Shown: positions 1-20,478 of the stretch, piece by piece
How positions within the stretch are numbered: the stretch's first letter is position 1
Layout: every line of letters starts with the position of its first letter
Assembly: GCA_000004985.1 (NCBI GenBank)
Contig: GG738957.1
DNA from: Naegleria gruberi
Lineage: Eukaryota
Strand: one strand, 5' to 3'
DNA: 20,478 nucleotides
Program-made: the position numbers and the translations under genes
Notes under the pieces: generated by a model
Seen by the model: the letters and a program-made list of their open reading frames with translations, nothing else
Told to the model about the DNA's origin: nothing
The model's database searches: none

Positions 1-2470
1 TCAATCTTCATAACATCAGTAAAATCATCAGATTGGACTACTGCAATGTAATCATCAAGCATGGAATGATACATTTTAAATCTTTTTCGTACTGAATCAA
101 ATCTTGACTTGTCAACGGTACCCGTAGATTGATATTCCTTCATTAAATATCTGTATTCCAACAAGATAGAAAATGGCGTAATTGGAAGAATAGCAGCGTT
201 GATCATTACTGTCAACTGGGTGTTCTGATTGGCTATAAAAACATTGCAAAGCTGGGCCACCAATACTAGCACAATAGAAATCACAATAAGGGAAATGAAA
301 AATGTAGAAAAACACCAGTTGGTACTTTCTCTTTTGATGGCTACTCTATAAATTTCTTTCGCCTTTTCTTGAGGATTAATCCTGTCATCCTTGTACATTG
401 ATGCAGATTCTAGCTCTGCAAAGTCTTCCAATTGTTGCTCAACACTTTTTCTCCTCTCATATAATGCCAAATTACGAGCCTCTTTCAAAGGATGAACTCT
501 GTTGGCTTTCTGGTGTGAGAAAGACATTTTACGTTTGCGAGCTTCATTCTCTTCCATTTGATTCGCTCTCTGTGAATATTTAACTCAAATCTCTTTAAAT
601 TCATATTACTTACTTCATAAAAATCATCAGCTGCCTCTTTCTCATAAAGAACTTGTTCCAAGAATCGAGCATAAGTTCTATAGACACTCTTCTCACGTTT
701 ACCAGAGACTAGATTCTGTAAAATGTCATTGCATGACTCAATTTCAATGGAAATGTTACGAATGGATGATTCGAGTGCTCTCTCAGAAGAATCCTCTGAT
801 AATAAGGTTTTCCAGAATGACTTTTTCAAAAGAAGAATATTTTCTTGCTTCATTAGAACTTTCTCCAAGTAATTACCAATTTCAGACATGTTAGTACATG
901 TTATTTCTTTCTTTCTTATCATGAAATTCATCTTGTCAATGAAATTGGCAGTATCTATCAATTCCTCAGTTTTCTTCAACAGCAATATGGAAGAAGCTTC
1001 AGAATTCTCAATCAAGTAGTATGTATAAACTATTGCAATAAGTCTATCTTGAAAGGATACATCAATCTTGGAGGAAGATACTGTCTTGATCAACAATTCG
1101 GCATAATCAGAATGTGAACTATCCTTCATAGACCAAATTATGAAATAATCCATATATTTAATTCCTCTGTCTAAGAATAGTTCCCCATCAAGAAGATTAG
1201 CTTCAATATTTTTCTTTACATAGGTTTGCATTAATCGAGAAACAATTTCCAATGACGCAAATCCACAAATAAACCCTAAAATGAATATTGAGAGAGCTAT
1301 TCCCATAAAAATTAAACCAACTGTCTCTGTGTCAATGTTTTTAGAGTTTGTCATGACAGAAAAAGATGTTAATGAGACAGCTGACCATAAAATAGATCCA
1401 ACTAACACTCCAAATATCACTGAATTCTCCACTCTTCTCATGAATGGAAGTCTATAGCATTGCAATACACAAAGTGAAAGGTTTTTCAAAATGAGCAAAA
1501 GTGGTGGAACGTAGTATAATGAAGGTGGAATAACTTGTTGAACAAATGCAAATCCAATATTCGAAGAGATCCACATAGTAGAAAAGAATGGACTGAATGA
1601 AATGAAAACTCCCCTACTCATAGGGTTAATGTCAACCATTATCAATGATGATATTATTGATGTAAATAATGTTGTTAATGCTCCAATGACAGAAATAACT
1701 ATCATTCCAATATTGAGAGAAGACCAACATGCATGTGATTGTTCGAATCCTGATAAGGTCATTGAAGTATAGTCACAATGTAAAAACCGCCCATAGCAAT
1801 ACATCATTGGAACTGCAAATAATACATGAAGGGTACTAAGCAGTCGAGTGATTTGCTTTGCTCTCTCCCAGTATTTACTTCCATTACTAAATGCCTTGTG
1901 ACAAAACAAAAACATTAGGAGAGTTGTGGCCGAAACTATGAATGAAATACAAGCAAAAGCAATCAATCCCTATTAAATCATTAATGGTTATGATTAAATC
2001 CAAAAACAACATACTTCATAGGGTAATAAATCAAAAGATAATGTCCATAGAAAAGCAACTGATCTCATAACCCACCCACCAACGAAACCCCACCTGTACT
2101 CTGAATAGGTGGACAAAGTTACTGTCTGTAATATCAGCCACAAATAAATAATGATAGAAATTAGTGGCCTCGTTGTTTCCTCGACATTCCTCAAAAGTAT
2201 TACTAGAGAGCCAAGCTCCTTAGTGATTTTCCTAGTAATATTGCCTTGGAGACTGGAATCTGATATCCATGATGAAAGACTCTCTTTGCTTTTTGTTGAT
2301 TGGGCTACATAACGTTCTGGTACACTAAATGTAACATTTTGTTGGGCATCATCTGATAGTGCTCCTGATGTGTCGACTGTTGTCTTGTCGTTATGAATAG
2401 AATATTGTTGTAATGCTGAATAGTTCTCTGCATATTCTCCAACGTTTTTTGTTGAGGGATTGAGGGACAT
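1..2470 (-). CDS. Multi-pass (about 9-10 TM) membrane protein of unknown family; three exons in the window (2470..2015, 1969..614, 569..1) and the 3' end continues past the left edge.
   Basis: The ATG at 2470 sits in an A-rich context (atcaaaaaaaATGtcc). Exon 1 (152 aa) has 2 TM helices. Exon 2 is the 485..1966 ORF, 7 TM helices followed by about 250 aa that look cytoplasmic. A GTAAGT donor after codon 616-614 and a CACAG acceptor ending at 570 switch from the frame of the 485..1966 ORF into a second frame that stays open from 569 to 1. That frame gives a protein-like sequence (RANQMEENEARKRK...WCFSTFFISLIVISIVLVLVAQL... with another TM). The ORF track shows only a 493-aa ORF, a 158-aa ORF and an out-of-frame shadow at 112..315. 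Confidence 0.6.
570..613 (-). other. 44-nt intron (GTAAGT...CACAG) producing a frame switch at the 3' end of the membrane-protein gene.
   Basis: The minus strand reads ...ttt tat gaa|gtaagtaatatgaatttaaagagatttgagttaaatattcacag|aga gcg aat caa atg.... After splicing, the downstream frame is open for 189 more codons to the window edge. Without splicing the gene ends 28 codons later at an in-frame TGA. Confidence 0.65.
1970..2014 (-). other. 45-nt intron (GTATGT...TTTAATAG) joining ORF 1994..2470 to ORF 485..1966 in frame (...LLPYE|GLIAFAC...).
   Basis: On the minus strand the sequence reads gaa|gtatgttgtttttggatttaatcataaccattaatgatttaatag|gga. The intron contains an in-frame TAA, and both flanking ORFs are hydrophobic TM-rich sequence. 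The length matches the second intron of the same gene. Confidence 0.5.
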
Positions 2471-2704: not shown

Positions 2705-3445
2705 ATGTCAGCACGAGGAGCTAATCACAATCTCTCAATTCTTCTTCTTTGTATTCTTCTTGTTGTAGTTCTATTGATATCCTATTCTATTGACAATGTT
2801 GAAGGAGCAGTAAAGAAGAAGAAGAAATCCAACAAGGCAGCAGAAACTGTCCTTATTGTAGTCAAGAAAAATAACCAATTTCCAGAACTTGAGGTGAGGG
2901 AATTGAAAAAGGGTCGTAAGAAACAATCCGATCCAATTCAAGCATCTTCCAACAATTATAATCATCAAGGCAAAGCTCAGAATATCCAACAACAACAAGG
3001 AGAAGCTGAAACACTCACAGAAGGAGAGGTATTAGCAGAACAAGCAAACACTGCTGCCCAACCCCAACAACCAACTTCATCTCTTCCCAACAAGACTATC
3101 GCCACAAAGGCACAATTAGAAGCCAACACAAAAACCATGATTATTATCTTTTCTATTGTCGGTTGTATTATTCTTGGATTGGCTTTAATTGGTATTATTG
3201 CTGGAGTAGCCTTTGTGGTCAAACAGAAGAGAAATTATCCTTCTTCTTCGGGTGCTGCTGCTTCATCTAATTGTTGTTCCAAGTTGAAGAATTTGTTGTG
3301 TTGCTGTTGTGCAAGGCGAGCAACCTCCCACAGTAAGAAACATGATGATTATGAGAATGGTAGTAGTGGCGGGTCAATATTGTATCGACAAGATGATGAC
3401 ATGAAGAGGCAATTGTTGGACAAGTTGCAAGATTATGAATTGTAA
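2705..3445 (+). CDS. Mucin-like type-I membrane protein, 246 aa: signal peptide, Q/T/S/N-rich ectodomain, one TM, and a cytoplasmic tail with a CC..CCCC cluster.
   Basis: ATG in context atcaaaaATGtca. Hydrophobic N-terminus LSILLLCILLVVVLLISYS. TM helix MIIIFSIVGCIILGLALIGIIAGVAFVV. The tail SSNCCSKLKNLLCCCCARR contains candidate palmitoylation cysteines. No catalytic motifs seen. Confidence 0.6.
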   Translation: MSARGANHNLSILLLCILLVVVLLISYSIDNVEGAVKKKKKSNKAAETVLIVVKKNNQFPELEVRELKKGRKKQSDPIQASSNNYNHQGKAQNIQQQQGEAETLTEGEVLAEQANTAAQPQQPTSSLPNKTIATKAQLEANTKTMIIIFSIVGCIILGLALIGIIAGVAFVVKQKRNYPSSSGAAASSNCCSKLKNLLCCCCARRATSHSKKHDDYENGSSGGSILYRQDDDMKRQLLDKLQDYEL

Positions 3446-4187: not shown

Positions 4188-5738
4188 ATGAGTAATGATG
4201 ACAACGACGTGCCCATGACCCCAAGGAGAGCATCCAGACAAGTCCAAACCAAATTCAACTCTCGTGATTATGCTCTCGTATTTGAAGAAGCTATCAAAGA
4301 TAAGGACTGTAGAGCAATTTTTAAGAGATTTCTAAAGAAGAGTCGTTCGGAAGAGTTGATGCAATTTTATGAAGAATATACAAAATATGATGAATTATTC
4401 TTGGAATGTTTGAATGCTAGTAGTTCTGGCGGTTCAGGTGGGAAAGGAAGGAGGAGTACCACAACATCAAAATCTGATGAGGATGACACAGTTTCGAATA
4501 GATTGAGTGTTAATAGTGCAGACTCTTCGACTAAATTGTTTAGGAAAGCAATTCAAAAGTTGTGGATTCAGGCACAAAGCATGATAGGTAGATTTATTCA
4601 ACAAGGTGCTGAACATGAAATTAATATTGGAAGTTTACAGAGAATGACATTTTCTAGGTGGCAAATATTGGATGACTTGACACCTGTTGTTTTTCAAGAA
4701 GCTAATTGGACTGATAATGAATATCAAACACTGTTGAATGTTTATCAAACAAAATTGGATCCTAATGTGTTATTTGAAGGATTATTAATAGCAGTATTAC
4801 AGGATTTAAAGCATGACCAATTTCCAAGATTTGTCAGAAATGATTTACTATTCGATTACTTACAAAAGAAGGGTGAGGTCTACACAAGAGCTATTGCCAT
4901 CAATGTTTCACATGGATTTAATGTTGATGTAAGATTTCAACCAAGTGATTTACAAAGTAAGGTCATTGATGAAAAGATGATTTTCTTTGGATTCACACTT
5001 TTACAAGATACACCAGATTGGGAACTAATCCTCGATAAGGATGATATTCAAGGATACATGTCCAAGACCAGTTACTTCTTTGGAAAGGATACAAGTGTTG
5101 GAAAGGAGAAGAAGGGTTTACGGCTGCATAAATCTGTTTACACATTGCCTTTCTGTATTGAGGATGTTTGGAAAATGGTGTGTAATCAAGAAAATCATTT
5201 AAAATTTGATCCAAAAGCAAATGAGGAATTCAAATTGAGAGATTTTAGGGAACCAAATCAAGATTGTGAATTTGCTGTAACGGAAACAGAAATGGGACCA
5301 AAATTCATGCCCATCATGAAAAGAAGACACTTTCCATTTATTACAACAACTTTTTATGACTCTCGTTTGAAAGGTTATGTGGTTGTCTGTAGAAGTTTCA
5401 ATGATTCTGATAATCACACCGATAGAATTCACTATGATGGTTTTGCATATACCATGTACATACCAAATGGTGATAAGGCAACCAATGTTTTCATGATTGA
5501 CTACTCAGATATCAAAATGCCATTCAAGGCGGCCATTTTGGAGAATACAGCCTACAAATTCCACATTCCAACAGTTCAGAAGGGTATGGTTAAGGTATTG
5601 AATGAACTCACCAATAATAGCACAAAGAATGTAGAGTGGAATGAGTCTATGGATGGAAGACACTGGTGGAAAATGGCAGAATTGCACAAAAATCGTTATC
5701 CTAACAAGTCATGGTATGATGAGTGGTTGAAAAAGTAG
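4188..5738 (+). CDS. RGS-domain protein with a C-terminal START/Bet v1-like domain, 516 aa.
   Basis: ATG in context aaaaccATGagt. RGS signature FEEAIKDKDCRAIFKRFLKKSRSEELMQFYEEYTKYDEL ... AQSMIGRFIQQGAEHEINIGSLQRM, interrupted by a Ser/Gly-rich low-complexity insert. The C-terminal roughly 220 aa (RRHFPFITTTFYDSRLKGYVVVCRSF...HYDGFAYTMYIPNGDKATNVFMIDYSDIKMPF) resembles the START lipid-binding fold by eye. Single exon. Confidence 0.6.
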   Translation: MSNDDNDVPMTPRRASRQVQTKFNSRDYALVFEEAIKDKDCRAIFKRFLKKSRSEELMQFYEEYTKYDELFLECLNASSSGGSGGKGRRSTTTSKSDEDDTVSNRLSVNSADSSTKLFRKAIQKLWIQAQSMIGRFIQQGAEHEINIGSLQRMTFSRWQILDDLTPVVFQEANWTDNEYQTLLNVYQTKLDPNVLFEGLLIAVLQDLKHDQFPRFVRNDLLFDYLQKKGEVYTRAIAINVSHGFNVDVRFQPSDLQSKVIDEKMIFFGFTLLQDTPDWELILDKDDIQGYMSKTSYFFGKDTSVGKEKKGLRLHKSVYTLPFCIEDVWKMVCNQENHLKFDPKANEEFKLRDFREPNQDCEFAVTETEMGPKFMPIMKRRHFPFITTTFYDSRLKGYVVVCRSFNDSDNHTDRIHYDGFAYTMYIPNGDKATNVFMIDYSDIKMPFKAAILENTAYKFHIPTVQKGMVKVLNELTNNSTKNVEWNESMDGRHWWKMAELHKNRYPNKSWYDEWLKK

Positions 5739-5992
5739 CCCCAAAGACAGCAAGAAACCAAGTTTCTTCACTCAATAGTAATTACAACCATTTCAGATTC
5801 CCAATAAGACAAATTGCCGTTTGCAAACTAGAATTACTGAAATCTGAAGTTCAATATTGCTAATATTGCTAATGTTTTGTAGGTGAAAATAACCTAATCT
5901 ATTGCCAAAGCACCAGTAAGGATTTCCCTCAATTGTTCAAAGCAGCTGTATTGTTACTTATTTAAATTATTTATTTTTCTTTTTGAATCAAA

Positions 5993-7666
5993 TTAAAATT
6001 CATTTCCCTTCTTCTTTTTCAATTTGTCAACCTTAATCTTGTCAATCTTCATTTCACGTTGGAAAGCAAGAGATTGCTTGAATCTGTGATGAGTATCCAT
6101 CATAACGAGGCATGTTTCCTTTTCCAAAATGTTAAACATATCTTCTGGAAGAGTTTCAATTTGCTTATCATTGAATTTGTCCAACTTATCCTTAACAGAA
6201 TCCACCAAAACATGTGATATATTGACAGCCATATCACCAGTCACTTCCAAGAATTCAGTAAATATTTCAAAAGCAACTTCATACTTTTTGGCTTCAACTT
6301 CTGCATATTCCCTTTCAAGTGGAGATTCCTTCTTCTTCTTTGATGATTGAGCTGACTCTGCTGAAATATCACTCGAAATATCACTCAATGCATTATTTTC
6401 TTGTCCAAATAATCTCATTTGCAAGTCAATTGAACGTTCACATAACGTTCTATAATATTGAATCTTTTCAAGAAGTAAATAATTTTCAATTGACTTTTCC
6501 TTTTCACAATGAACCTTAAAAAGAGCTCTCAAACCATCATCTTCCATTGTGTCCATTAACATGATTGCATTGGCACGACGAATCTTTTCCAAATATAAAG
6601 AATCACGATTAATAGCATAGGTAAAAACAAAGACAATGATTGGCATAATGACAAATAGTGAAATTGCAATAACAATCAATTGTACCAATGTAATACCCAA
6701 TACTTGTGAATCCTTTTCCTTTTCTCTGTTTTGTATAAAGGCAACTAATTTATCCAGACCTGACTGGAAAATTGCTTTTTCAGAATAGAAATAATCAGAA
6801 CTAATCTTTTCAATTGAATCTTCTGGTTGAGTTTTCAGCATTATCAATGCTTGATTATTCAAAGATACTACCATATTAGAAGCTTCAATAGCTGTAGAAT
6901 TGAATAAAGTTTGAATTGACTTGTCATCCACAGTTTTGAAAATTAAAAGTAAAGTTGATTTCATATCAGCAGTCTTGTTTTTAAATTCATTAATCACAGC
7001 TGAGTGACTTGGTTCATCAACATATCCTGTATAGACATGTTTCAACACCACAGCATTTGAACTTTCGAATAGAGAAGTGACCTTTCCAACAGCAATTAAA
7101 ATATCAGTTGCCTTTGTACTAGCAGTTGCAAATGCAGCAATTGCAACACCTGCCAAAACCAACAAACCAATGACAGTAACCAACATTCCCAATAAACAAG
7201 CCAATTTCATTGAAGTCAACTCAACCACACCACAACATGTACGTAAAGTAATTTTACTCTGACTAAATGAACTACCTGATTTACCACTTTCACTTGGTTG
7301 TCCAAAACCTACTTGAGATTGTCCAAGTTTCGTATTACCATTCACAGCACTACCAGATTGAATCGTAACTTGTTTCTTTCCATTACTATTATTATTAATA
7401 TTACCAGTGATACTTGTTCCACCATTTGTTTTGTTGGGATTATTAGGATTGCTGGTAATGAATGTATTTGTGTTTGGTGGTGTAAATTGATATTGTTGTT
7501 GAGTGGTTGGTTGTTGTTGTTGTTGTAGTGGAGGAGAGGATGAAGTTGAAGCCAATTCTATTGAAGTGGGGTTTGTTGTGTTAATAATATTGTTGGAATC
7601 ATGACTGTTGGAGAGTATTATTGGTGGTGGAGAGGTGGATGTCTCCGGAGAGGTTGTATTCATCAT
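5993..7666 (-). CDS. Receptor-like RGS protein, 557 aa: S/T/N/Q-rich N-terminus, TM1, about 160-aa extracellular loop, TM2, cytoplasmic RGS domain.
   Basis: Two strong TM helices (LACLLGMLVTVIGLLVLAGVAIAAFA and VLGITLVQLIVIAISLFVIMPIIVFVFTYAI). RGS motifs GLRALFKVHCEKEKSIENYLLLEKIQYYR ... KKYEVAFEIFTEFLEVTGDMAVNISHVL ... MMDTHHRFKQSLAFQ. Convergent with the previous gene, with 254 bp between the stops. Confidence 0.65.
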   Translation of the reverse strand: MMNTTSPETSTSPPPIILSNSHDSNNIINTTNPTSIELASTSSSPPLQQQQQPTTQQQYQFTPPNTNTFITSNPNNPNKTNGGTSITGNINNNSNGKKQVTIQSGSAVNGNTKLGQSQVGFGQPSESGKSGSSFSQSKITLRTCCGVVELTSMKLACLLGMLVTVIGLLVLAGVAIAAFATASTKATDILIAVGKVTSLFESSNAVVLKHVYTGYVDEPSHSAVINEFKNKTADMKSTLLLIFKTVDDKSIQTLFNSTAIEASNMVVSLNNQALIMLKTQPEDSIEKISSDYFYSEKAIFQSGLDKLVAFIQNREKEKDSQVLGITLVQLIVIAISLFVIMPIIVFVFTYAINRDSLYLEKIRRANAIMLMDTMEDDGLRALFKVHCEKEKSIENYLLLEKIQYYRTLCERSIDLQMRLFGQENNALSDISSDISAESAQSSKKKKESPLEREYAEVEAKKYEVAFEIFTEFLEVTGDMAVNISHVLVDSVKDKLDKFNDKQIETLPEDMFNILEKETCLVMMDTHHRFKQSLAFQREMKIDKIKVDKLKKKKGNEF

Positions 7667-8413
7667 GATGATAATTTAATAAATTATTATATAAATTATT
7701 ATTAGTATTTGTAGTATTATTATTAATCTAGATTTAAAAGATATGATGATGATTTTATATTTATTTGATGATCATCGTGATGATGATGACGGAGATAAAT
7801 CCGATGATGATGGCGCGATTTTGTGTTGGTTTATACTGTTAAATATTAACTAAAAACCTACCACGAGTTTTATCTATATTGTTAAATGTTTGGCAGTTGT
7901 GTACAATTACTACTGTTGTGTTGTTGTTGAAAGCAAACTAAGTGTTTTTGGTTTTGGAGTTTCTTTTTTACGTTTGTGAAATCTGTTGGTGTGTTGGCTT
8001 GGACTTTTCTTTGGAGTCTGACGAGGTTGTTGCATGTTGAATGGTTTGATAACCTAGAAGAGAATGGCTTGTCATTTTATGGACAGTTGATGGGAATTAA
8101 GTTTCGAATAAGTATGAGAAAGTTTGGGAATTGGTTTACTAATTGGACGGCAATGATGGATTATGGTCATGTGAAGAATTTCGGATGAGATTTGTGAATG
8201 GCTTTTGCTTATTTGCATGTTTCGAATATTCGTGCAACTTTCTTCAAAAAAAATAGATAAAGAAAGAGTCTAACAAATCGAAACAGGTACCTGTTTAAAG
8301 AGTGTTATCATCGCAGTTATCTTTGGTACGATATTTGGATAAAAATCATAGTAGTTCGATTGTAATAAGTTTGTAATGAATATTTCGAATACCAAATAAT
8401 TTATTCTAAACCC

Positions 8414-9724
8414 TTATTGATATTTATGCAATTCAGGATCTTTCAACAACCTTTCCATGTGCTCTCTCCACAAACTCAATTGAACAACTAAACTACCCTT
8501 CTCAACACCTTCCACAATTTTGAAAACGCCATCCAAAATTGTTGGAATTTCACCAACGAAAATTGGACTTTCGTTTGAGAATTTCAAATCGAATAGATTG
8601 AATGCAACCCATGAGGTGGCGAAAACATCAGTTCCAAATAGGACATGCATGTCTGATGGTCTAACTTTTTTAGAAACTGAAATCCAATCAATGAAATCTT
8701 GGACATGTTGTTTGTCCATGGTTCGGTTGACTGCATGTCTGGACACAGGTGCAAGAGTGGATAAATTGGAGTGGAGAATGGATTCGACAGAGATTCTATC
8801 AGATTGTCCATTCATTACTAGATAACCAAAGTAATCTTTTTGGATATTCAATGGTTTTCTTACATTACACGAATGTAAAAGACAAGAAGTTTGAGAATTC
8901 GAAAGGTTTCTTGCTTTGGTGATGAGTTTCCACATGTGTGAACAGAGAGCATCATTGGTACTAATCCATGAGTTTGCATTCGATAGTTCAATAGATGACA
9001 TTGCTTCCTTCTTCATGGCTTGAAGTTCTTTTTCACTGAATTTAATCATCTTGGCAGTACATTGACCAATCTTGGCATACAATTCTTCATAATTGATATG
9101 TTCTTCACTTTGAGTCCAGAATGGAAATGACTTTGGTGATTCCTTATTCGAAACCTTAATCACTTCATTCCTATTCAAGCAATCATATCGTATATTGTCA
9201 ATACTTTCACCCCTGAATAGTTGAGACCATCTATGCAAGAACTGAGCATGAGAATCACCATCTCCTAATTGATGTAACAATTCTGAAACTAACAAAACTC
9301 CACCACATTTGAAATAAGTAACTTGAATTTGAAGTGGAGCATCTTGAATGCCTTTCCATTGGGTGTATAGATCTTTAGGATATTGGTCGTAATCTCCCTT
9401 ATCGAAATCATCAAGGTTAAAATTGGCTTGTGCAATGGTGAAGGGAACACCACAAGTTTCGTTTCGAATATCTACAAACCATTCACCTTCGTTATTTCTT
9501 ACTGTTCTGCCGGCGAATATTGGAAAGATAGATAAAGTCTTTTCCAGTGCACTCATCAGTTCAGTTGCATTCATAAAGTTTGGTTCCGATTTTTCATTTC
9601 TATATGCAAATTGAAAGTGAAATGGAAGAGCAGGTGCCAAATTATCAAATACTGTCAATTTGACTAGTGTTTCTTTGGAAAGTAGTGGTTTGACAAGGAT
9701 TGGAGATTTGCTGACTTGTTGCAT
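8414..9724 (-). CDS. BAHD-family (HXXXD) acyl-CoA-dependent acyltransferase, 436 aa.
   Basis: TYFKCGGVLLVSELLHQLGDGDSHAQFLHRWSQLFRG matches the BAHD core F.CGG....HxxxDG....F...W...RG. Compare HCT RFKCGG...[22 protein letters not shown]. The C-terminal DFGWG motif is degenerate (DLKFSN). The ATG has an A-rich leader (aaaaaaaATGcaa). Confidence 0.7.
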   Translation of the reverse strand: MQQVSKSPILVKPLLSKETLVKLTVFDNLAPALPFHFQFAYRNEKSEPNFMNATELMSALEKTLSIFPIFAGRTVRNNEGEWFVDIRNETCGVPFTIAQANFNLDDFDKGDYDQYPKDLYTQWKGIQDAPLQIQVTYFKCGGVLLVSELLHQLGDGDSHAQFLHRWSQLFRGESIDNIRYDCLNRNEVIKVSNKESPKSFPFWTQSEEHINYEELYAKIGQCTAKMIKFSEKELQAMKKEAMSSIELSNANSWISTNDALCSHMWKLITKARNLSNSQTSCLLHSCNVRKPLNIQKDYFGYLVMNGQSDRISVESILHSNLSTLAPVSRHAVNRTMDKQHVQDFIDWISVSKKVRPSDMHVLFGTDVFATSWVAFNLFDLKFSNESPIFVGEIPTILDGVFKIVEGVEKGSLVVQLSLWREHMERLLKDPELHKYQ

Positions 9725-9888
9725 TTTTTTTATGATGTAATTTCAATTTGAAAATTCAATTTCGTAATTGAATTTCGTAATAATTGACTTACAGCGCTCA
9801 TCCTTATTCAAATCTTTAACACCGCAATTTGGAAATATATTTAAAAATTTATTGTAACACTAGAAAAATATTTAGAATGTGAGAAAAT

Positions 9889-12472
9889 TTATAAACCATT
9901 CATGTATTTCACATCACTTTCTAACATGCTTTCAGTTACAACACCGATATTTACACAATATCTTGATAAATCAACATTCTCATTGATTTTCTTTCTTGAT
10001 AATTTAATCAAATGATCCCATAATTTGATTCTATCTGGTTGGTAGGTCTGTAATTCTTCAATTAATCCAATCATGTATTGAACATCTTCATCTGCCATTT
10101 GATTGGTAAACATTGACACGAATTTTTCACATAGCATTGCCAGCTTGTCATTTAATTTCTTTGATTCCAATTCATAAAGCCATTCATCTTCTTTCACATT
10201 ATTGCTTCTTATCAACTCATACACTGTTTGCACATTTTCAAATCCAGAGAAATGTTCACTCGAATATCGGTCAACTGGAGCAAACACAAAGCGAGAATTT
10301 GCCTTATGATTCAAATAGGTACTCTCATCTACAAGAATATTAGTAGAAATAACACTATTCAAATAAGCCAAATCTCTGGAGCATTTCATCGAACGTCCAA
10401 ACATTGCATAATATCTCATTTGTTTGTTTCCGATATTTCCTTGAAGACATGATCCAGTACTTATTCCAATATGCAAGTCAACTGGTGTTTTCTTTTCATT
10501 GGTTAATGTTTCATTGAGAGAATTGAAGAATGATTTGATTTTAAGGGATGTTTCTAGAATGGTAATGTTATCAGGGTGAATGACTGCATATTCATCAACA
10601 CTCTTCGTGTGAACATCAACTTTCATTGTCTTACATAGTTGGAGAATGTTAGTATAGCATTTTGATAGCAAATTACTCAAATCATAGGTGTTATCGATCA
10701 TGTTAAATCCTGTAATCTTGATATACATTACAGAGCTGTTAAGGGTTGACAAACCAATTTTGAAGAGATTCATCTTGTTATTGGTATTGTTATCAACACC
10801 AAGGAAGAATGATGAAGTATGTGAGGATTTCTCTTCCAAGTATGATGAGTTCTCCTTTTTTAGGTAATGTTGTTTGGCTGAATTTTCAATGACATGTTGA
10901 TCTGAAGGTGTTGTAATTACTTTAGGTTTCTGAGGATCATTACTTTCCAATTGATTAAGAATATTCTCTGGAAGGAAAGCTCTAAATTCCTGTAACCACT
11001 TGACTGTCAAGTACAAACTCACATAGATATTTCTAATTTCGGTAAAGATTGAAGAGTGTCTCTCGATTTCTTCCAAACTCATTACTTCAATCTTTGCAAA
11101 ATCGGATTGAATGATTCGAAGAGGTTTCGTTATGGCATATCCTATCAAGATACTAAACATCATTCCAATTAAGGTGACTCCAATAGCAACACCCAAAATG
11201 ACGTAACTGCTAAGAATGACATTTTCCATAATTTCACTCTCCTCACACACTATTGTCATTCTCCATTTCAAATTATCTATTGAATAGGATGAACTGGAAA
11301 TCATGTAGGAAATTCCATCTTCTCCTGTAACTTGTGTAATATCTCCTTCTGATACATTCATTGATAGATACTTGTTCATTAGTGAACCAGCATTTCGAAC
11401 TGTTACATTTCTTACTGGAATTCTGTCAAAACCAACTCCCGTAATATTCAAATTGGCTCCAATAATCATATCATTGGCATATTCAGTCAGAATGATATAT
11501 CCTCTATTCAAAATCTTTAATTTTGATAAAAAGGTTGAAATTTTACCTAGTGAAAGATTGATCTTTGAAATTCCAATTCTTCTCTTTTCGGCTGGCCACA
11601 CTGTTCTGTCGTAAACTGGAGATGAATAATAAATTGATTGAACTCCATCAGAGAGCACTATTTACATTCAAGAAAACAGCATGTGAATATAGTAAATAAA
11701 AAATATGTGAATATAGAAAGGAAATGAATAACTTACCCTTATAAGGAGGACCAAAACCACCAGGTGAAGTTGGATAGGCATTGAATATTCTCAATGATTC
11801 CTTGTAGTAATCTGTAGTATTTATAAAATACTTTGGAACGCTTGTTGAAACCTTATCATACATGGGCACCACTGATGTCAAATTCAAATCGCAAATGGTT
11901 AATTTTAGATTATTAAAATTTACGAAAGCCCAACTTTTGGTGTCCACAGCAAAAAGTCCATTATTATTCAATTCACCAAAACAAATATTCAACATTGTAA
12001 CATTGTTGTAAATTATTCTACTGTGAAAGTATGGAACTAGCGAACTATCGGTATTGATTACTTTTCTGTGATAATCATCAGCCAGAGTGATGGATAAACT
12101 TTTTGCTAGCATTAAGGGTCTATCAAGAAAGTTTATAATCTTCTCCTGGATAGTCTGGACAAGTACTTTTGTCGATTGTATTGATTCCCTTTGATGCATT
12201 ACATAAGCAGAGAGCCAAACACTGAATGATGTAGCAATGACCAATATCATGATTAGCATGACGAGGAATAACCTAAAGGAAAGACAAAAGCCTAGTAAGG
12301 GATTTCTATCATGTATGCTCTTACTACTCTGTATTTCCTCATTATTATTAATATTATTATTGTTGTTGTTGTTGTTGTGATTAATATTGTTAGTGGTTGT
12401 ATTGTTGTTACTGAAGGAATAGAGATTGCTTGCAGAATAGCTATCATGATGATGAGGTGCAATTCTAGTCAT
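9889..12472 (-). CDS. Receptor-type class III adenylate/guanylate cyclase, ACG-like topology, 834 aa in two exons (12472..11737 and 11657..9889).
   Basis: The first ATG (MTRIAPHHH) is at 12472; the ORF track's 'M' at 12568 is a GTG. Exon 1 has a poly-Asn tract, TM1 (FRLFLVMLIMILVIATSFSVWLSAYV) and an extracellular region. The extracellular region continues in exon 2 (about 340 aa in total, CHASE-like). It is followed by TM2 (VILSSYVILGVAIGVTLIGMMFSILIGYAI), a linker and the cyclase homology domain (...YIKITGFNMI...KSVDEYAV...DLHIGISTGSCLQGNIGNKQMRYYAMFGRSMKCSRDL). The exons are joined by a phase-1 GTAAGT...AAATAG intron (K|V-LSDG). Confidence 0.7.
11658..11736 (-). other. 79-nt phase-1 intron of the cyclase gene (GTAAGT...AAATAG).
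   Basis: The minus strand reads cct cct tat aag g|gtaagttattcatttcc...gaatgtaaatag|tg ctc tct gat gga. The 11648..12568 ORF otherwise terminates at TAA. The reading frame is restored exactly and the combined length (2505 nt) is divisible by 3. Confidence 0.75.
12338..12412 (-). repeat. (AAT/AAC)n simple-sequence repeat encoding a poly-Asn tract (NNINHNNNNNNNNINNN) in the cytoplasmic N-terminus of the cyclase.
   Basis: The plus strand shows attattattaatattattattgttgttgttgttgttgtg. Antisense reading gives the poly-Val 'shadow ORF' 12311..12538. Confidence 0.8.
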
Positions 12473-13036
12473 TTTGTTAGAGTTGGAGAGTTTAAAGTCA
12501 GCGAGATTGATACCACTATTAGACGCTGGTTCACATGATACAACCTTAATTGCGCACACAACAAACACCGTGGTTGGAGTGTTACTCCTTATATGATACT
12601 AACTGTGTGTAAGTTCTCTATCTCTCTCGCTTGTTGAGGAGTCACAAACATAACAGAATCAAAATGAAGGTTCATCATACCTCTTGATTTAGTGAGCGTA
12701 AAAATGGAGATTCTGCGAATGATTCTGTTGCGTGTTCAAATATTTCGCCTTAATGATATTAATTTGTGTGAGATGGTGACCAATTAGTGGTTTGTTGGCA
12801 TATAAGTTCGTATCACCTCGTTGCCTTAATGAGACAACTCAAGGTGGTTTTCTTACAGCACATGTTATTTTAAAAAGCAGGAATAGGATCACTGATTCCA
12901 CAACTATGGAATATTACTAACCTGACGTTTATATTTATTTTATATTTATTATACATTCATTTTATTTATAATGAATAATTGCATTTTGAATTTTCTTTAA
13001 AAAAAATACTTAAACAAACAATTTGTATTGTTAAAT

Positions 13037-14338
13037 ATGAGATTCGTTAAGCATATGCTAGCAGTAATTGTACCACAGTCGGAGATAGATGACTCGGTCG
13101 ATATAATTAGCAAGGTTGAATTTAGGGATGTTTGTTTTAATGTGTTTAGAATTGATAGTAATGGTGATTTAATTCCTCCCTCCACCAAGTTCTCCCAAAG
13201 AAAATTAGAGTTTCTTACTAATATTAAGGACATTTTGCAGAAAACCACAGGTGGAATGGCTCGTATTGGCTATCTAAGTAGGAAGGATCCAAGTGCTTCT
13301 GGTACTTGCTTTTATTTACTTCCCGATGTTGTAATTACCAACTCCCACGTTGTGAATACAGATCAAACCCCTTTCGTTTATAAAGGAACCTTTGAGGAGG
13401 CATCTAATGGTTATTTACAAAAGTTGAATCCTATTGAAAGAAAATTGCTCTTCTCTGGATCAGCCTTACAGAATGGAATAAGGAAATATAACCACTCCGT
13501 AACACGAGCACATTTCCCAAGTGTGGATGATGCTTATGTAGATCCAATACTTTCTTTGAGAGGAGATTTTGGATATATGGATGTTTCCTTGCACCAACTG
13601 AAATGCCTATCCAAGAATTTAGAAATGTCTAAAGTACTAATGATTCCGTGTCCTACACTCCTTCAAGTTTCGGATCCTATCTTCACTCTGCATTATCCAG
13701 GGATCGAGGGGTACCAATTTTCCAACCATAAAAGAGGAGAATGTGCAAACTATTTTAATTGGGCTCCCAACGACAATGTTGTTTCTAATTTGTTTCATGG
13801 TTTTGGAAAGCTATGTATTAGTACTGGTAAAGTATTGGCCCCATACGCAGAAATGAAAGATGAAAATGGAAACAATATTTGGGCTCCAAACACTTCACAT
13901 CAATACACATCTCTTAATTCTGATTTCCTTATAACAAATGAATCTGTAATGATGGGTTCTTCTGGTGGTTGTGTACAATCCCATGCTTGTGAGGTTGATG
14001 AGATTAATGGTGTGACATTGGTAGAGTTTCACGCCATCCATTTTGGAGGCGAATTTGTTAAATGTAAGAATTGCTTAAAGCACATCAAACAACAAATGAA
14101 TGTTAATGATGAATATCCATCTTTATTCCAAGGTTTACCTCGAGAATGGAACTTTTGCACAGATTGTCAAAATGGAATAGAACCTTCAAAAATGGTATAC
14201 AATTACTCTGTGTCTGTCCATCATCCATTGTTCAAACAGGTCTACAAGAAATTAATTTTGCCAGATTTGTTGAATGTGTTGAATATTGATTTGTCAGACA
14301 ATAGATTAGAACGATTGAGACAATATTTAGATAGTTGA
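13037..14338 (+). CDS. Trypsin/chymotrypsin-fold serine peptidase (Trypsin_2-like), 433 aa, with a C-terminal CxxC...CxxC zinc-ribbon-like motif.
   Basis: The first ATG is at 13037; the 13028 start in the track is a TTG. Catalytic His in GTCFYLLPDVVITNSHVV, compare DegP ILTNNHVV. Catalytic Ser in MMGSSGGCV, which is GxSGG. The C-terminus has CKNC(x20)CTDC. It is transcribed divergently from the cyclase, 564 bp away. Confidence 0.6.
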   Translation: MRFVKHMLAVIVPQSEIDDSVDIISKVEFRDVCFNVFRIDSNGDLIPPSTKFSQRKLEFLTNIKDILQKTTGGMARIGYLSRKDPSASGTCFYLLPDVVITNSHVVNTDQTPFVYKGTFEEASNGYLQKLNPIERKLLFSGSALQNGIRKYNHSVTRAHFPSVDDAYVDPILSLRGDFGYMDVSLHQLKCLSKNLEMSKVLMIPCPTLLQVSDPIFTLHYPGIEGYQFSNHKRGECANYFNWAPNDNVVSNLFHGFGKLCISTGKVLAPYAEMKDENGNNIWAPNTSHQYTSLNSDFLITNESVMMGSSGGCVQSHACEVDEINGVTLVEFHAIHFGGEFVKCKNCLKHIKQQMNVNDEYPSLFQGLPREWNFCTDCQNGIEPSKMVYNYSVSVHHPLFKQVYKKLILPDLLNVLNIDLSDNRLERLRQYLDS

Positions 14339-15330: not shown

Positions 15331-17364
15331 ATGTCCTCACGTTCTCACAGATTCACCATCAACAACGTATTCAAAGATTCAACACCAAGCATTGAGGTTA
15401 ACGAAGAATCTAAATTCGATAAGCTGTCCTTCCCTTCTGTTGGCACTCTTTATCATTCTTCTACCATTTCTGATCCATTTAAATCTCTTATTCAATACAA
15501 CATTAAATTAAATGGAGAAAAGCCAAGAGAGATTGATGGCAAGGTTTACCAATTTCAAAGTGGTAAATGTAAAGGTTGTAAACAGTGCACAGCTAGTGGG
15601 TGTTCACTTTGTTACAATCTTAATTCAAAGAGAAAGCTGTGTCCTGTTCATAATTGCAATTTGGAACATAGAAAGTGTAATACCAAATTTTATATTGGCT
15701 CAACCAGTCAAGACCAGTTCGTCTATTCTTCTTCTTGTCATTCACATCCAAATCCACCTCCAAGAAAGATTCCTCCAAGCCAAAGACTTGAAATGGGTGC
15801 TGCATTTCAAAACAATACTACTCTTACAGCCAAAGATGTATCATTGGGTATTGGATTATCTGAAATTCCTGCTTTTGAAAATAGAGCATGTGCAAATATT
15901 TCAAGAATTCAATCCATCAAAAGGCAAGCTCTAAAATTGGGTGGCTCATCTCCTTCCTTGGTTATTTTGAAAGTTGAAGAACAACATGTACCAGATTTTC
16001 AAAAGAAAATGAAAGATGTTGATCCTTCAGATTTACAATGGGTCAGAAACATTGTAAACGACGTGGATAATTCTTTGATTCATACACAATTTCCATTATT
16101 TTCTAAAATAATTAAGGAGAAGGCGAATTTTCTGGTAATAGATTTAAAGCATAAGTCAAAAGCAGGTCCTTATTATCATCACCTTGGTTTTTCTTCTTTT
16201 ATTGAAGAACAAAAGGGAGGTCATTCAATCCAATTATGTAGAATTCTAATGGAAGAACAAACATATCAAGAACCGTTTCTATTATTTCTAAACACTCTTG
16301 AAAAAGATGGTTGTAATTTGAATGAATTGTTTGTTGGGCCTAACTGTAAAATCAAAGGGATTTTGGTTGATTTTAGCCAATTTCAATTAAAAGGTTTAAA
16401 AGACGCCTTTAGGGTAAAGTTTGGAGAAAAAGGTGATTCTATAATTGATGAATTGGTTTCAGGTTGTTTCGTACATTTCCTTCGTTCAGCAAGAAGATTG
16501 GTAAATTCGCTGCCAATAGAACAAGAATACAGAAATCTGGTTTTCAAAATGTTGGAAAGTGTTAAAGAATTTAAGAAAGAAGATGAAATCATCCATATCA
16601 TCAATGCTATTGAGGTATTCTGTGCAGGAGCAGCAACTTGGTGTACTTGGTGGAAGCAACCACATATCTTGAAATTGCTTCTTGCAAAAAGTTCCCAAGA
16701 AAATGATATACCAAGACATACAAACCACCAAGAAATTCTTAATGTAAACGTACCAACCTATGGAGGTAACTATGTCATTGAATCAGAGATGCTCTTGAGA
16801 GAAGATATGTTGGCATTGATAAGATATTTGAGTCTTTGTTCTGGTGTGGAATTATCATATAGAAATACTACTAAGCAAGGGAGAGAGAAGAGAAATCTGT
16901 CTCGTAAACAAGCTCAATTCGATAGTAGACCAGCAGATACTGTGGCTAGAGGAATAGTTCCAACCAATGTTTCGACAATAAGTGTTATCAAGAATTTCGT
17001 TCAAGGAGTGGAAGAAATGGAAAGGAAGAAGCTTGATGATTTTGCAGGAGAGCAAGCTGACGATTTGAATGACAAAGATTTTACTCCTACTGGATCCGTT
17101 GAACCTGCAAAACAAAAGAGAACCCCTCGAACTCCAAAGAAAGGCGTAAAAAGAGCAGCCAAGCCTTCACCCTCTCAAACTAAGAAGAAGTCAAAGGTGA
17201 TTGAAGACGAATATTCCAGTAGCTCATCTGATGGATTTGAGAGTGCTGCCAGTAATTCTATTACTGATGAGTCCGAAAGTGAATCTGATTCCATTCGTGA
17301 TACTGAGATATTCACAAGATCCAAAGGATTAATTGGAGATCCAAATAGATCTGAAAGTGCTTAA
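15331..17364 (+). CDS. MULE-type DDE transposase, 677 aa: N-terminal Cys-rich zinc-finger-like region, DDE catalytic core with CxxH, and a basic/acidic Ser-rich C-terminal tail.
   Basis: Cys cluster CKGCKQCTASGCSLCYNLNSKRKLCPVHNCNLEHRKC...SSCHSH. First Asp in NFLVIDLKHK (D271). Second Asp in KGILVDFSQFQLKGLKDAF (D347). Diagnostic MULE CxxH in SGCFVHFLRSARR. The catalytic Glu lies in HTNHQEILN, matching the T-N-x-x-E-x-x-N motif of MuDR-family transposases. The D-D spacing is 76 and D-E is 121. TATAAAT lies at 15281..15287, 44 bp upstream of the ATG. Confidence 0.65.
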   Translation: MSSRSHRFTINNVFKDSTPSIEVNEESKFDKLSFPSVGTLYHSSTISDPFKSLIQYNIKLNGEKPREIDGKVYQFQSGKCKGCKQCTASGCSLCYNLNSKRKLCPVHNCNLEHRKCNTKFYIGSTSQDQFVYSSSCHSHPNPPPRKIPPSQRLEMGAAFQNNTTLTAKDVSLGIGLSEIPAFENRACANISRIQSIKRQALKLGGSSPSLVILKVEEQHVPDFQKKMKDVDPSDLQWVRNIVNDVDNSLIHTQFPLFSKIIKEKANFLVIDLKHKSKAGPYYHHLGFSSFIEEQKGGHSIQLCRILMEEQTYQEPFLLFLNTLEKDGCNLNELFVGPNCKIKGILVDFSQFQLKGLKDAFRVKFGEKGDSIIDELVSGCFVHFLRSARRLVNSLPIEQEYRNLVFKMLESVKEFKKEDEIIHIINAIEVFCAGAATWCTWWKQPHILKLLLAKSSQENDIPRHTNHQEILNVNVPTYGGNYVIESEMLLREDMLALIRYLSLCSGVELSYRNTTKQGREKRNLSRKQAQFDSRPADTVARGIVPTNVSTISVIKNFVQGVEEMERKKLDDFAGEQADDLNDKDFTPTGSVEPAKQKRTPRTPKKGVKRAAKPSPSQTKKKSKVIEDEYSSSSSDGFESAASNSITDESESESDSIRDTEIFTRSKGLIGDPNRSESA

Positions 17365-17823: not shown

Positions 17824-19439
17824 NNNNNNNNNNNNNNNNNNNNNNNNNNNNNNNNNNNNNNNNNNNNNNNNNNNNNNNNNNNNNNNNNNNNNNNNNNNNN
17901 NNNNNNNNNNNNNNNNNNNNNNNNNNNNNNNNNNNNNNNNNNNNNNNNNNNNNNNNNNNNNNNNNNNNNNNNNNNNNNNNNNNNNNNNNNNNNNNNNNNN
18001 NNNNNNNNNNNNNNNNNNNNNNNNNNNNNNNNNNNNNNNNNNNNNNNNNNNNNNNNNNNNNNNNNNNNNNNNNNNNNNNNNNNNNNNNNNNNNNNNNNNN
18101 NNNNNNNNNNNNNNNNNNNNNNNNNNNNNNNNNNNNNNNNNNNNNNNNNNNNNNNNNNNNNNNNNNNNNNNNNNNNNNNNNNNNNNNNNNNNNNNNNNNN
18201 NNNNNNNNNNNNNNNNNNNNNNNNNNNNNNNNNNNNNNNNNNNNNNNNNNNNNNNNNNNNNNNNNNNNNNNNNNNNNNNNNNNNNNNNNNNNNNNNNNNN
18301 NNNNNNNNNNNNNNNNNNNNNNNNNNNNNNNNNNNNNNNNNNNNNNNNNNNNNNNNNNNNNNNNNNNNNNNNNNNNNNNNNNNNNNNNNNNNNNNNNNNN
18401 NNNNNNNNNNNNNNNNNNNNNNNNNNNNNNNNNNNNNNNNNNNNNNNNNNNNNNNNNNNNNNNNNNNNNNNNNNNNNNNNNNNNNNNNNNNNNNNNNNNN
18501 NNNNNNNNNNNNNNNNNNNNNNNNNNNNNNNNNNNNNNNNNNNNNNNNNNNNNNNNNNNNNNNNNNNNNNNNNNNNNNNNNNNNNNNNNNNNNNNNNNNN
18601 NNNNNNNNNNNNNNNNNNNNNNNNNNNNNNNNNNNNNNNNNNNNNNNNNNNNNNNNNNNNNNNNNNNNNNNNNNNNNNNNNNNNNNNNNNNNNNNNNNNN
18701 NNNNNNNNNNNNNNNNNNNNNNNNNNNNNNNNNNNNNNNNNNNNNNNNNNNNNNNNNNNNNNNNNNNNNNNNNNNNNNNNNNNNNNNNNNNNNNNNNNNN
18801 NNNNNNNNNNNNNNNNNNNNNNNNNNNNNNNNNNNNNNNNNNNNNNNNNNNNNNNNNNNNNNNNNNNNNNNNNNNNNNNNNNNNNNNNNNNNNNNNNNNN
18901 NNNNNNNNNNNNNNNNNNNNNNNNNNNNNNNNNNNNNNNNNNNNNNNNNNNNNNNNNNNNNNNNNNNNNNNNNNNNNNNNNNNNNNNNNNNNNNNNNNNN
19001 NNNNNNNNNNNNNNNNNNNNNNNNNNNNNNNNNNNNNNNNNNNNNNNNNNNNNNNNNNNNNNNNNNNNNNNNNNNNNNNNNNNNNNNNNNNNNNNNNNNN
19101 NNNNNNNNNNNNNNNNNNNNNNNNNNNNNNNNNNNNNNNNNNNNNNNNNNNNNNNNNNNNNNNNNNNNNNNNNNNNNNNNNNNNNNNNNNNNNNNNNNNN
19201 NNNNNNNNNNNNNNNNNNNNNNNNNNNNNNNNNNNNNNNNNNNNNNNNNNNNNNNNNNNNNNNNNNNNNNNNNNNNNNNNNNNNNNNNNNNNNNNNNNNN
19301 NNNNNNNNNNNNNNNNNNNNNNNNNNNNNNNNNNNNNNNNNNNNNNNNNNNNNNNNNNNNNNNNNNNNNNNNNNNNNNNNNNNNNNNNNNNNNNNNNNNN
19401 NNNNNNNNNNNNNNNNNNNNNNNNNNNNNNNNNNNNNNN
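17824..19439. other. Assembly gap (1616 N) between the unique subtelomeric sequence and the telomere-associated sequence.
   Basis: The run of n is continuous. The ORFs reported across it (17723..19462, 17752..19446 and 17769..19457) are artefacts of translating N. Confidence 0.99.
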
Positions 19440-20234: not shown

Positions 20235-20478
20235 TGGGTTTGGGTTTGGTTAACCTGGGGGTTGGGTTTGGGTTTGGGTTTGGGTTTGGGTTTGGGTTTG
20301 GGTTTGGGTTTGGGTTTGGGTTTGGGTTTGGGTTTGGGTTTGGGTTTGGGTTTGGGTTTGGGTTTGGGTTTGGGTTTGGGTTTGGGTTTGGGTTTGGGTT
20401 TGGGTTTGGGTTTGGGTTTGGGTTGGGTTTGGGTTTGGGTTTGGGTCTGGGTTTGGGTTTGGGTTTGGGTTTGGGTTA
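20235..20478 (+). repeat. Telomeric repeat array (TTTGGG)n, about 40 units, G-rich strand 5'->3' towards the window end, with degenerate proximal units and rare variants (GGGTT, GGGTCT).
   Basis: gggtttgggtttgggttt... repeats perfectly from about 20263 to 20478 and runs off the end. The proximal units are variants, gtgggtttgggtttggttaacctgggggtt. One 5-mer unit lies near 20424 and a C-variant near 20447. Confidence 0.9.

Follow-up and report, generated by a model that had tools for sequence, protein, structure and literature searches.

The window analysed here is the complete 20,478-bp scaffold (GC content of about 34%) of Naegleria gruberi NEG-M, a heterolobosean amoeboflagellate, and its gene at 5993..7666 on the reverse strand encodes, with a probability that we put at roughly 0.6, a two-pass membrane "receptor-GAP" that belongs to a large family of Naegleria and Willaertia proteins. 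In such a protein an extracellular sensor of the four-helix-bundle (4HB) class would control a cytoplasmic regulator of G-protein signalling (RGS) domain, acting as GTPase-activating protein (GAP) on a heterotrimeric G-alpha subunit. New here is the homology between the ectodomain of this RGS receptor and a bacterial periplasmic sensor domain. The product itself is exactly EFC36025.1 / XP_002668769.1 / D2W4H8, annotated in the databases as "predicted protein". A dictyostelid source of the window is rejected, since its proteins show 100% identity to those of N. gruberi. An earlier interpretation, made from the letters of the window without database searches (the sequence-only reading), had proposed three signalling genes in this region, and all three exist with the limits that it gave, as open reading frames (ORFs) at 4188..5738 (+) and 5993..7666 (-) and as a gene at 9889..12472 (-).

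The homology of the ectodomain emerges from a scan of 1.84 billion representative proteins with a full-length profile of the family, which gave 198 matches. The 88 strong ones (E ≤ 1e-10) are full-length relatives, nearly all with two transmembrane (TM) peaks 165-195 residues apart. Weak matches (E 1e-6 to 1e-4) cover only the part formed by TM1, loop and TM2, and lie in bacterial-type proteins: PAS-histidine kinases, hybrid kinases (e.g., from Terasakiella), as well as one GGDEF protein, one SpoIIE phosphatase and two genuine class III cyclases. A comparison by hhalign of 73 family loops with 25 bacterial loops, free of TM segments, gave a probability of 99.3% (E 3.6e-20) over 128 columns, and reversed, column-shuffled and block-shuffled controls never fell below an E of 0.002 or exceeded 25 columns. 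Motifs common to both sets of loops are found in helices 1-2 (G-x-I-x-x-x-D/E ... T-G-D ... Y) and in helices 3-4 (A-N-x-x-L ... G-x-x-x-x-A-x-x-L-L-x-S-x-x-Y ... Y/F-x-x-G-L/M-D). By fold comparison, the predicted model of the ectodomain is a Tar/histidine kinase (HK)-type four-helix bundle. In Pfam at E ≤ 10, the loop of the RGS receptor matched none of 4HB_MCP_1, CHASE3 and TarH, giving noise alone (RIFIN, PrgI), and the bacterial relatives matched weakly (4HB_MCP_1 in 4 of 22, best E 0.028; CHASE3 in 2 of 22), with no Pfam model for their sensor domain beyond these. Judged by these profile comparisons, the ectodomain is demonstrably homologous to the bacterial periplasmic domain and constitutes an unmodelled branch of the 4HB class. 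The sequence-only reading had spoken of a "bacterial-style" sensor scaffold, and the TM-free homology together with the Tar/HK-type bundle goes beyond that claim.

The bacterial sensor domain (P0137-P0175) is a widespread periplasmic four-helix bundle of about 145 aa, with the consensus ...G.I..LDEVLTMSA.MAA.TGD..W..RY....LD.AI...T..AN..LV..E..AF.L...G....A..LL.S..Y...K..Y..G..., and its fusion partners are PAS-histidine kinases, hybrid kinases, GGDEF, SpoIIE and class III cyclases. One relative in which the bundle is joined to a cyclase, P0142, was considered as a possible eukaryotic protein; with 63% GC in its contig, it is not from Naegleria.

The two TM helices that had been proposed for the RGS receptor are borne out by strong hydrophobic segments at residues ~155-180 and 328-350 (Kyte-Doolittle peaks of 2.75 and 3.22). 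Nor are they a signal peptide followed by a hydrophobic core, since about 150 residues precede TM1, which is therefore a signal anchor and not a cleavable signal peptide. Among 73 members of the family, lysine plus arginine in the 15 residues flanking the TMs amount to 1.7 and 3.4 on the presumed cytosolic sides vs. 0.75 and 1.3 on the loop side. At least one N-x-S/T sequon occurs in the loop of all 73 members, at a density of 2.2 per 100 aa vs. 1.0 in the C-terminal part, and sequon N256 is nearly invariant in the family alignment. By the positive-inside rule and the sequons of the loop, the loop is predicted to be extracellular and the N- and C-terminus cytoplasmic.

An AlphaFold (AF2) model of the receptor was made from 20 homologues, and the column identities given here and in Table 1 are those of the family alignment. 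The predicted local distance difference test (pLDDT) of the model is 80-92 across the bundle, TM2 and the RGS domain. The bundle, antiparallel and situated between the two TMs, consists of helices 186-213, 218-245, 249-288 and 291 onward, the first continuous with TM1 and the fourth with TM2. In fact, a single unbroken helix (291-375) contains TM2 and leads from bundle helix 4 through TM2 and the juxtamembrane segment into RGS helix 1. The juxtamembrane helix, a rigid link between TM2 and the RGS domain and the most conserved segment of the family, is presumed to be the signal-transmitting element. A beta-hairpin (strands 140-149) is predicted in the pre-TM1 motif, which, with its Cys-Cys pair, is a possible palmitoylation or membrane-docking element, and the polybasic C-terminal helix may similarly be a membrane-binding tail. 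The insert of the RGS domain looks like a phosphorylation-prone regulatory loop; its length differs among paralogues, reaching about 60 residues at most in Willaertia.

Regarding the output domain, the RGS profile PF00615 (cut-off 23.9 bits) recognises both proteins in which RGS regions had been proposed, the two-TM protein with 25.4 bits (residues 373-537, only 1.5 bits over the cut-off) and the soluble protein with 32.3 bits. Many members of the receptor family also have precomputed PF00615 matches. The predicted RGS fold is all-helical and superposes on RGS4 with 1.8 Å over 110 of 116 residues. Residues N482, D524 and R528 stand opposite N128, D163 and R167 of RGS4, as shown by hhalign and pairwise alignment, and within the family N482 and R528 are invariant and D524 is kept in at least 90%. 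In the N-terminal half, aligned by inspection alone, S392, E394 and N395 correspond to S85, E87 and N88 (KSIEN(392-395) vs. YSEEN(84-88)); a Smith-Waterman alignment of this half to RGS4 was rejected because it paired the wrong helices. The RGS domain thus appears to keep the G-alpha-binding residues and is likely GAP-competent. Other membrane RGS domains of Naegleria, those of the seven-transmembrane (7TM)-RGS proteins of N. fowleri, have been proven to be GAPs (Bosch et al. 2022, PMC9283941).

The family of the RGS receptor comprises 19 close relatives and at least 88 clusters at 50% identity. All members with a source name come from N. gruberi, N. fowleri, N. lovaniensis or Willaertia magna, and the family is restricted to Heterolobosea (Naegleria and Willaertia). 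At least 15 different paralogues belong to N. gruberi, where their scaffolds measure 158-820 kb; two of them share a 401.6-kb scaffold and three a 747-kb scaffold, which indicates local duplication within the RGS-receptor family. The ectodomain varies more than any other structured part, with a column identity of 0.34, against values of 0.61 for TM2, 0.82 for the juxtamembrane helix and 0.67-0.69 for the RGS domain; as read from the alignment, a variable ectodomain on a fixed output is the pattern typical of receptors whose inputs diversify within a family. One relative (P0004) was located on a metagenome contig of 8.9 kb, where its neighbours are cullin, F-box and homeobox genes and none is a signalling gene. 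The sequence-only reading had held that this architecture is not commonly described. Against this, one paralogue is already named "RGS and transmembrane domain-containing protein" in the databases, and RGS domains fused to at least one TM segment occur in most eukaryotic lineages (De Mendoza et al. 2014). As to the more specific combination, no paper describing the 4HB-sensor-RGS architecture or its bacterial homology was found in the literature searched, an earlier description being possible.

How such a protein might work is suggested by N. fowleri, whose G-alpha is self-activating, with GTP hydrolysis as the rate-limiting step (Bosch et al. 2022, PMC9283941). In this amoeba, 28 7TM-RGS proteins with GAP-active RGS domains have been described, together with 79 other RGS proteins left without a finer classification (PMC9283941). 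The RGS receptor would reside in the plasma membrane, presumably as a dimer like its bacterial relatives, and an extracellular ligand bound to the bundle would shift TM2 and the juxtamembrane helix. This shift would alter the reach of the RGS domain to membrane-bound G-alpha, or its acceleration of GTP hydrolysis. Because G-alpha is self-activating and hydrolysis limits the rate, the changed GAP activity would be enough to switch the pathway on or off without a G-protein-coupled receptor (GPCR), as in the scheme of plant AtRGS1 and the 7TM-RGS proteins of Naegleria; in a system of this kind, control is most naturally exerted at the GAP step. Since the ectodomain varies and the output is conserved, the paralogues may sense different ligands. 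The earlier idea of a membrane sensor that acts as GAP for G-alpha is well founded in its anatomy (two TMs, an extracellular sensor-like domain, a cytoplasmic RGS domain), the ligand-regulated GAP activity being what we infer from it. A broader proposal, to which we would give somewhat less than even odds, is that the whole Naegleria/Willaertia family arose by grafting a horizontally acquired bacterial 4HB sensor onto an RGS domain, and that its dozens of paralogues are ligand-gated GAPs that sense bacteria-derived or environmental chemicals in a GPCR-independent manner.

Table 1. Features of the window, with positions on the scaffold, strand and the evidence for each (aa, residues of the respective product).
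Feature	Position	Strand	Evidence or remark
Two adjoining ORFs, 158 + 493 aa, multi-pass membrane protein	485..2470	-	TmcB-type TPR region PF25474, 32.3 bits
Soluble RGS protein, 516 aa	4188..5738	+	100% match to N. gruberi predicted protein (P0031)
RGS domain of soluble protein, aa 32-220, large insert	4281..4847	+	Pfam RGS 32.3 bits vs. cut-off 23.9
C-terminal domain of soluble protein, ~230 aa, possibly START/helix-grip-like	roughly 4950..5627	+	Foldseek, poor model
Gene for two-TM receptor-like RGS protein, 557 aa, no intron	5993..7666	-	ORF; identical to N. gruberi protein
Conserved polybasic C-terminal helix, aa 538-557 (REMKIDKIKVDKLKKKKGNEF)	5996..6055	-	Column identity 0.68
RGS domain, aa 373-537	6056..6550	-	Pfam PF00615; G-alpha-contact residues kept
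Disordered Ser/Asp/Glu-rich insert in RGS domain, aa 425-448 (…NALSDISSDISAESAQSSKKKKE…)	6323..6394	-	Parts two helices
Juxtamembrane helix, aa 351-375 (AINRDSLYLEKIRRANAIMLMDTME)	6542..6616	-	Column identity 0.82; invariant residues; helix continuity
TM2, aa ~328-350	6617..6685	-	Kyte-Doolittle peak 3.22; continuous with last bundle helix
Predicted extracellular four-helix-bundle sensor domain, aa 183-325 (143 residues)	6692..7120	-	Conserved N-x-S/T sequon N256
TM1, aa ~155-180, signal-anchor helix	7127..7204	-	Kyte-Doolittle peak 2.75; helix 152-182; positive-inside bias
Pre-TM1 motif, aa 125-154 (SESGKSG...RTCCGVVELTSMK)	7205..7294	-	Near-invariant Cys-Cys pair; column identity 0.64
Cytoplasmic N-terminal low-complexity tail, aa 1-124	7295..7666	-	Predicted disordered, pLDDT ~30; mean column identity 0.23
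Intervening gene, BAHD-type acyltransferase ("Transferase family")	8414..9724	-	Pfam PF02458, 157.5 bits
Two-TM receptor with degenerate class III cyclase-homology domain, 834 aa	9889..12472	-	Gene model; family alignment
Helical C-terminal region of cyclase	9892..10266	-	
Cyclase-homology domain	10267..10737	-	Guanylate_cyc PF00211
Cyclase TM2, aa ~395-420	11134..11211	-	Hydropathy
Cyclase ectodomain, ~305 aa	11224..12217	-	Weakly dCache_1-like
Cyclase TM1, aa ~62-85	12218..12289	-	Hydropathy
Cyclase exon 1; intron (79 nt, GT..AG); exon 2	11737..12472; 11658..11736; 9889..11657	-	Cyclase gene model
Terminal telomere-like array, (GGGTTT) x 36.8	20258..20477	+	Sequence; Tandem Repeats Finder score 419, 97% matches

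The neighbour at 4188..5738 had been described as an RGS plus START-like protein, and the first half of this description holds, as its Pfam score indicates. In its RGS domain the equivalents of N128, D163 and R167 are kept, and that of N88 is Leu. Its C-terminal half gave no Pfam START match at E ≤ 10 and no profile match to solved structures. Three homologues were found, two from N. gruberi and one environmental, and the AF2 model built from three sequences is poor (pLDDT 42), with an order of strands and helices that fits the helix-grip fold. The top six Foldseek matches of this poor model are all START domains, led by PCTP (E 4.7e-3, probability 0.99) and followed by CERT, STARD10 and StarD13, with TM-scores under 0.4. 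A START-like nature of the C-terminal domain is thus plausible but unproven, coming as it does from a low-confidence model. Should it be correct, the protein would combine GAP and START in a manner analogous to animal DLC/StarD13 (RhoGAP + START), although directed at heterotrimeric G proteins.

The third gene, at 9889..12472, encodes a receptor with a class III cyclase-homology domain (CHD). In the GenBank model EFC36027.1 (820 aa) the splice acceptor is placed more distally, at the cost of 14 residues (VLSDGVQSIYYSSP, window 11617..11657) that are conserved in all full-length homologues; the model with the 79-nt intron (834 aa) looks correct. PF00211 (Guanylate_cyc) is matched with 33.6 / 32.8 bits (cut-off 21.9), and the best solved relative is the alpha subunit of soluble guanylate cyclase (sGC alpha, E 1.3e-4). 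The ectodomain resembles PF02743 (dCache_1) weakly, with 22.1 bits (E 1.3e-4), under the cut-off of 45, and this model was found in 2 of 11 members of the cyclase family at E ≤ 0.01 (best 2.9e-5); among the window proteins, CHASE and Cache models gave no match at default Pfam thresholds. The sequence-only reading took the product for a receptor that makes cyclic AMP (cAMP), which is doubtful, as the CHD is devoid of three or four catalytic residues. In an alignment with sGC alpha and two strong bacterial-type cyclases, the first metal-binding Asp (D486 of sGC alpha) is replaced by Lys, and by Lys or Ser in all relatives. The transition-state Asn is also replaced by Lys, the position of the Arg is occupied by Asp with an Arg one position earlier, and the purine-specifying Asp/Cys is Ala; the second metal Asp and the Lys are retained. 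Both "C1-like" and "C2-like" halves of the site are therefore damaged, and neither a homodimer nor a simple complementary heterodimer would contain a complete site. On this alignment the product is probably a pseudo-cyclase, or else a subunit with regulatory functions only.

The scaffold ends in a (GGGTTT) array whose G-rich strand runs 5' to 3' up to the end (final 220 bases); the terminal hexamer TTTGGG/GGGTTT is accompanied by a few variant units close by, such as GGGTT and GGGTCT. No paper naming the unit of the Naegleria telomere repeat was found in the literature searched. The term "subtelomeric" is reasonable in view of this array, with the limitation that a 1.6-kb N gap (17824..19439) parts the genes from the repeat, so that their linkage depends on scaffolding. 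Near-identical partial copies of two genes of the window are present elsewhere in the N. gruberi assembly, in EFC35707.1 (8,551-bp scaffold) and EFC44915.1 (820-kb scaffold). One copy (252 aa) shares 97% identity with the RGS receptor over the N-terminal half of the latter, with small indels in the low-complexity tail, and the other, a fragment of 266 aa, agrees almost completely with the central part of the cyclase (region 9889..11200). These copies may represent allelic haplotigs, or else segmental duplicates of recent and possibly subtelomeric origin. The acyltransferase gene between RGS receptor and cyclase is well conserved and represents a plant/fungal-style enzyme family in an amoeba, unrelated to signalling. 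The ORFs in 485..2470 (-) resemble the Dictyostelium "tiny macrocysts" TmcB family; they are probably one gene with an intron, and this gene may extend further in the direction of the left scaffold end. No significant Pfam match was obtained for the ORFs at 2705..3445 (+), 13028..14338 (+) and 15331..17364 (+). The product of 2705..3445 looks like a small type I membrane protein with a signal peptide, an ectodomain rich in Gln and Ser, a single TM and a cytoplasmic tail rich in Cys, and the other two (436 and 677 aa) are devoid of recognisable domains.

Several observations weigh against a receptor-GAP. No HAMP-type transducer lies between TM2 and the RGS output, and the RGS domain is divergent, with its score close to the Pfam cut-off; neither it nor the family profile matches any solved RGS sequence at E ≤ 1. 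A selection bias attaches to the bacterial loops used for comparison, as they were picked from matches to the family profile, although these matches were already significant library-wide. The best structural match of the RGS domain is that of SNX13, a member of a group of two-TM proteins anchored in the endoplasmic reticulum (ER) that are not ligand receptors. From this likeness arises the alternative of a constitutive tether, in which TMs and bundle would only anchor and space the RGS domain at the plasma membrane, the ER or the contractile vacuole, as a fixed local GAP or a scaffold comparable to the two-TM SNX-RGS proteins (SNX13/14/25 and Mdm1), which have such a role at ER contact sites. 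We consider it unlikely, because the loop is no short hairpin but a folded domain of ~143 aa homologous to bacterial sensors, which, in the manner of ligand-binding domains, diverges far more rapidly than the remainder of the protein, and because the PXA and PX domains that define SNX-RGS proteins are absent. Indeed, Pfam recognised no PXA, PX or PXC, RGS being the sole match of the window protein, and 8 long relatives giving either RGS alone or no match. Furthermore, the conserved sequons suggest a passage through the secretory pathway with the loop exposed. The divergence of the RGS domain is also what speaks for a role as mere protein-interaction module, as in Axin, GRKs or SNX14, in a signalling without heterotrimeric G proteins. 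The marginal Pfam match, the absence of a sequence match to solved RGS domains and the 24-residue disordered insert would agree with it, and some RGS domains are indeed not GAPs according to De Mendoza et al. It is nevertheless improbable, in view of the invariant or near-invariant equivalents of RGS4 N128, D163 and R167 (and, by inspection, S85, E87 and N88), the superposition on RGS4, and the proven GAP activity of other Naegleria membrane RGS domains. A receptor-GAP is thus the reading that we retain.

A different matter is whether the three genes belong together. A model built on the cluster of the sequence-only reading would have them functionally linked, as a subtelomeric group for sensing that arose by local duplication and joins the shut-off of G proteins to cAMP production; we regard it as very improbable. 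In its favour, three signalling genes do lie within 8.3 kb, some 8-16 kb from the telomere-like repeat, and the partial copies of two of them on other scaffolds hint at a recent regional duplication or at allelic haplotigs. RGS receptor and cyclase also share the topology that had been ascribed to them (TM, loop, TM, cytoplasmic output), but not the loop itself, which is a 4HB domain in the former and weakly dCache-like in the latter. A test for homology of the two loops was negative: hhalign of the family alignments matched TM1 only, with 0.9% probability. Because the sensor loops are unrelated, a "local duplication and diversification" joining both genes is unsupported. In addition, the two RGS genes come from different families and are convergent, with 3' ends 255 bp apart, an unrelated acyltransferase gene stands between them and the cyclase, and the CHD is without several of its catalytic residues. 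In N. lovaniensis, the best relative of the RGS receptor lies on a contig of 629,652 bp and that of the cyclase on another of 1,082,833 bp, with uncertain orthology. The paralogues of the receptor are spread over many large scaffolds (350-820 kb), some of them seemingly in tandem, and a place at chromosome ends is not demonstrable for them. A Naegleria genome has some 16,000 genes. With about 108 RGS genes among them (PMC9283941), the chance of an RGS neighbour is about 1.4% per RGS gene, and 1-2 adjacent pairs are expected per genome. Most likely, then, the soluble RGS protein and the degenerate cyclase receptor are unrelated neighbours of the RGS receptor in a genome crowded with signalling genes, with no functional cluster, and the grouping is probably coincidental.

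If the receptor-GAP reading is correct, the family has consequences beyond this scaffold. Receptor-RGS fusions have so far been understood through the 7TM-RGS proteins of plants, Trichomonas and Naegleria, and a second, simpler class of receptor-GAPs would show that the principle of sensing by regulating the GAP evolved more than once. It would also exemplify clearly how a sensor module from bacteria was taken up by a pathway that is purely eukaryotic. Transmembrane signalling by the 4HB class is well studied in bacteria, and the family would offer a tractable system for the control of an RGS domain by TM2, in which ectodomain and output should be exchangeable with bacterial proteins in chimeras. 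Finally, it would explain some of the 79 "other" RGS proteins of the brain-eating N. fowleri, and it has no human counterpart; the G-protein pathways of this amoeba have been proposed as drug targets (PMC9283941).

Among known systems, the closest in presumed logic are the 7TM-RGS proteins (Arabidopsis AtRGS1, N. fowleri 7TM RGS1-4, Trichomonas 7TM-RGS), in which a receptor-like N-terminal part is likewise followed by a C-terminal cytoplasmic RGS domain and a regulated GAP acting on a self-activating G-alpha replaces GPCR-driven exchange (PMC9283941). Both types occur in Naegleria. The window protein, as nearly all members of its family, differs in having two TMs instead of seven, and its sensor is a bacterial-type extracellular four-helix bundle instead of a GPCR-like 7TM bundle or an ectodomain with EGF, lectin or GPS elements; for its family, a GAP role is predicted from sequence and models. 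In the sensor part, the comparison is with bacterial 4HB sensors of the 4HB_MCP_1/CHASE3 class such as Tar, NarX/NarQ, TorS, PcaY, McpN, R. palustris HK9 and Adeh_2942. As in Tar/NarX/HK-type sensors, helix 1 continues TM1 and helix 4 continues into TM2, whereas the output is the eukaryote-specific RGS domain, no HAMP is present, unlike in most bacterial 4HB receptors, and N-glycosylation sequons and long low-complexity cytoplasmic tails have been added. The SNX-RGS/RGS-PX proteins (SNX13, SNX14, SNX25 and yeast Mdm1) have PXA, PX and PXC domains, a short luminal hairpin and a location at ER contact sites; all three domains are absent from the window protein, which carries a 143-aa folded ectodomain. 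Regarding the other receptor of the window, a Cache-adenylate cyclase has been reported in Naegleria (Upadhyay et al. 2016, PMC4822843). The product of 9889..12472 is similar to it and to class III receptor cyclases in its TM, ~305-aa weakly dCache_1-like ectodomain, TM and CHD, but it and its whole subfamily are without key catalytic residues. Seen beside these systems, the RGS receptor is one more receptor-RGS fusion, with a sensor unlike that of the 7TM-RGS type.

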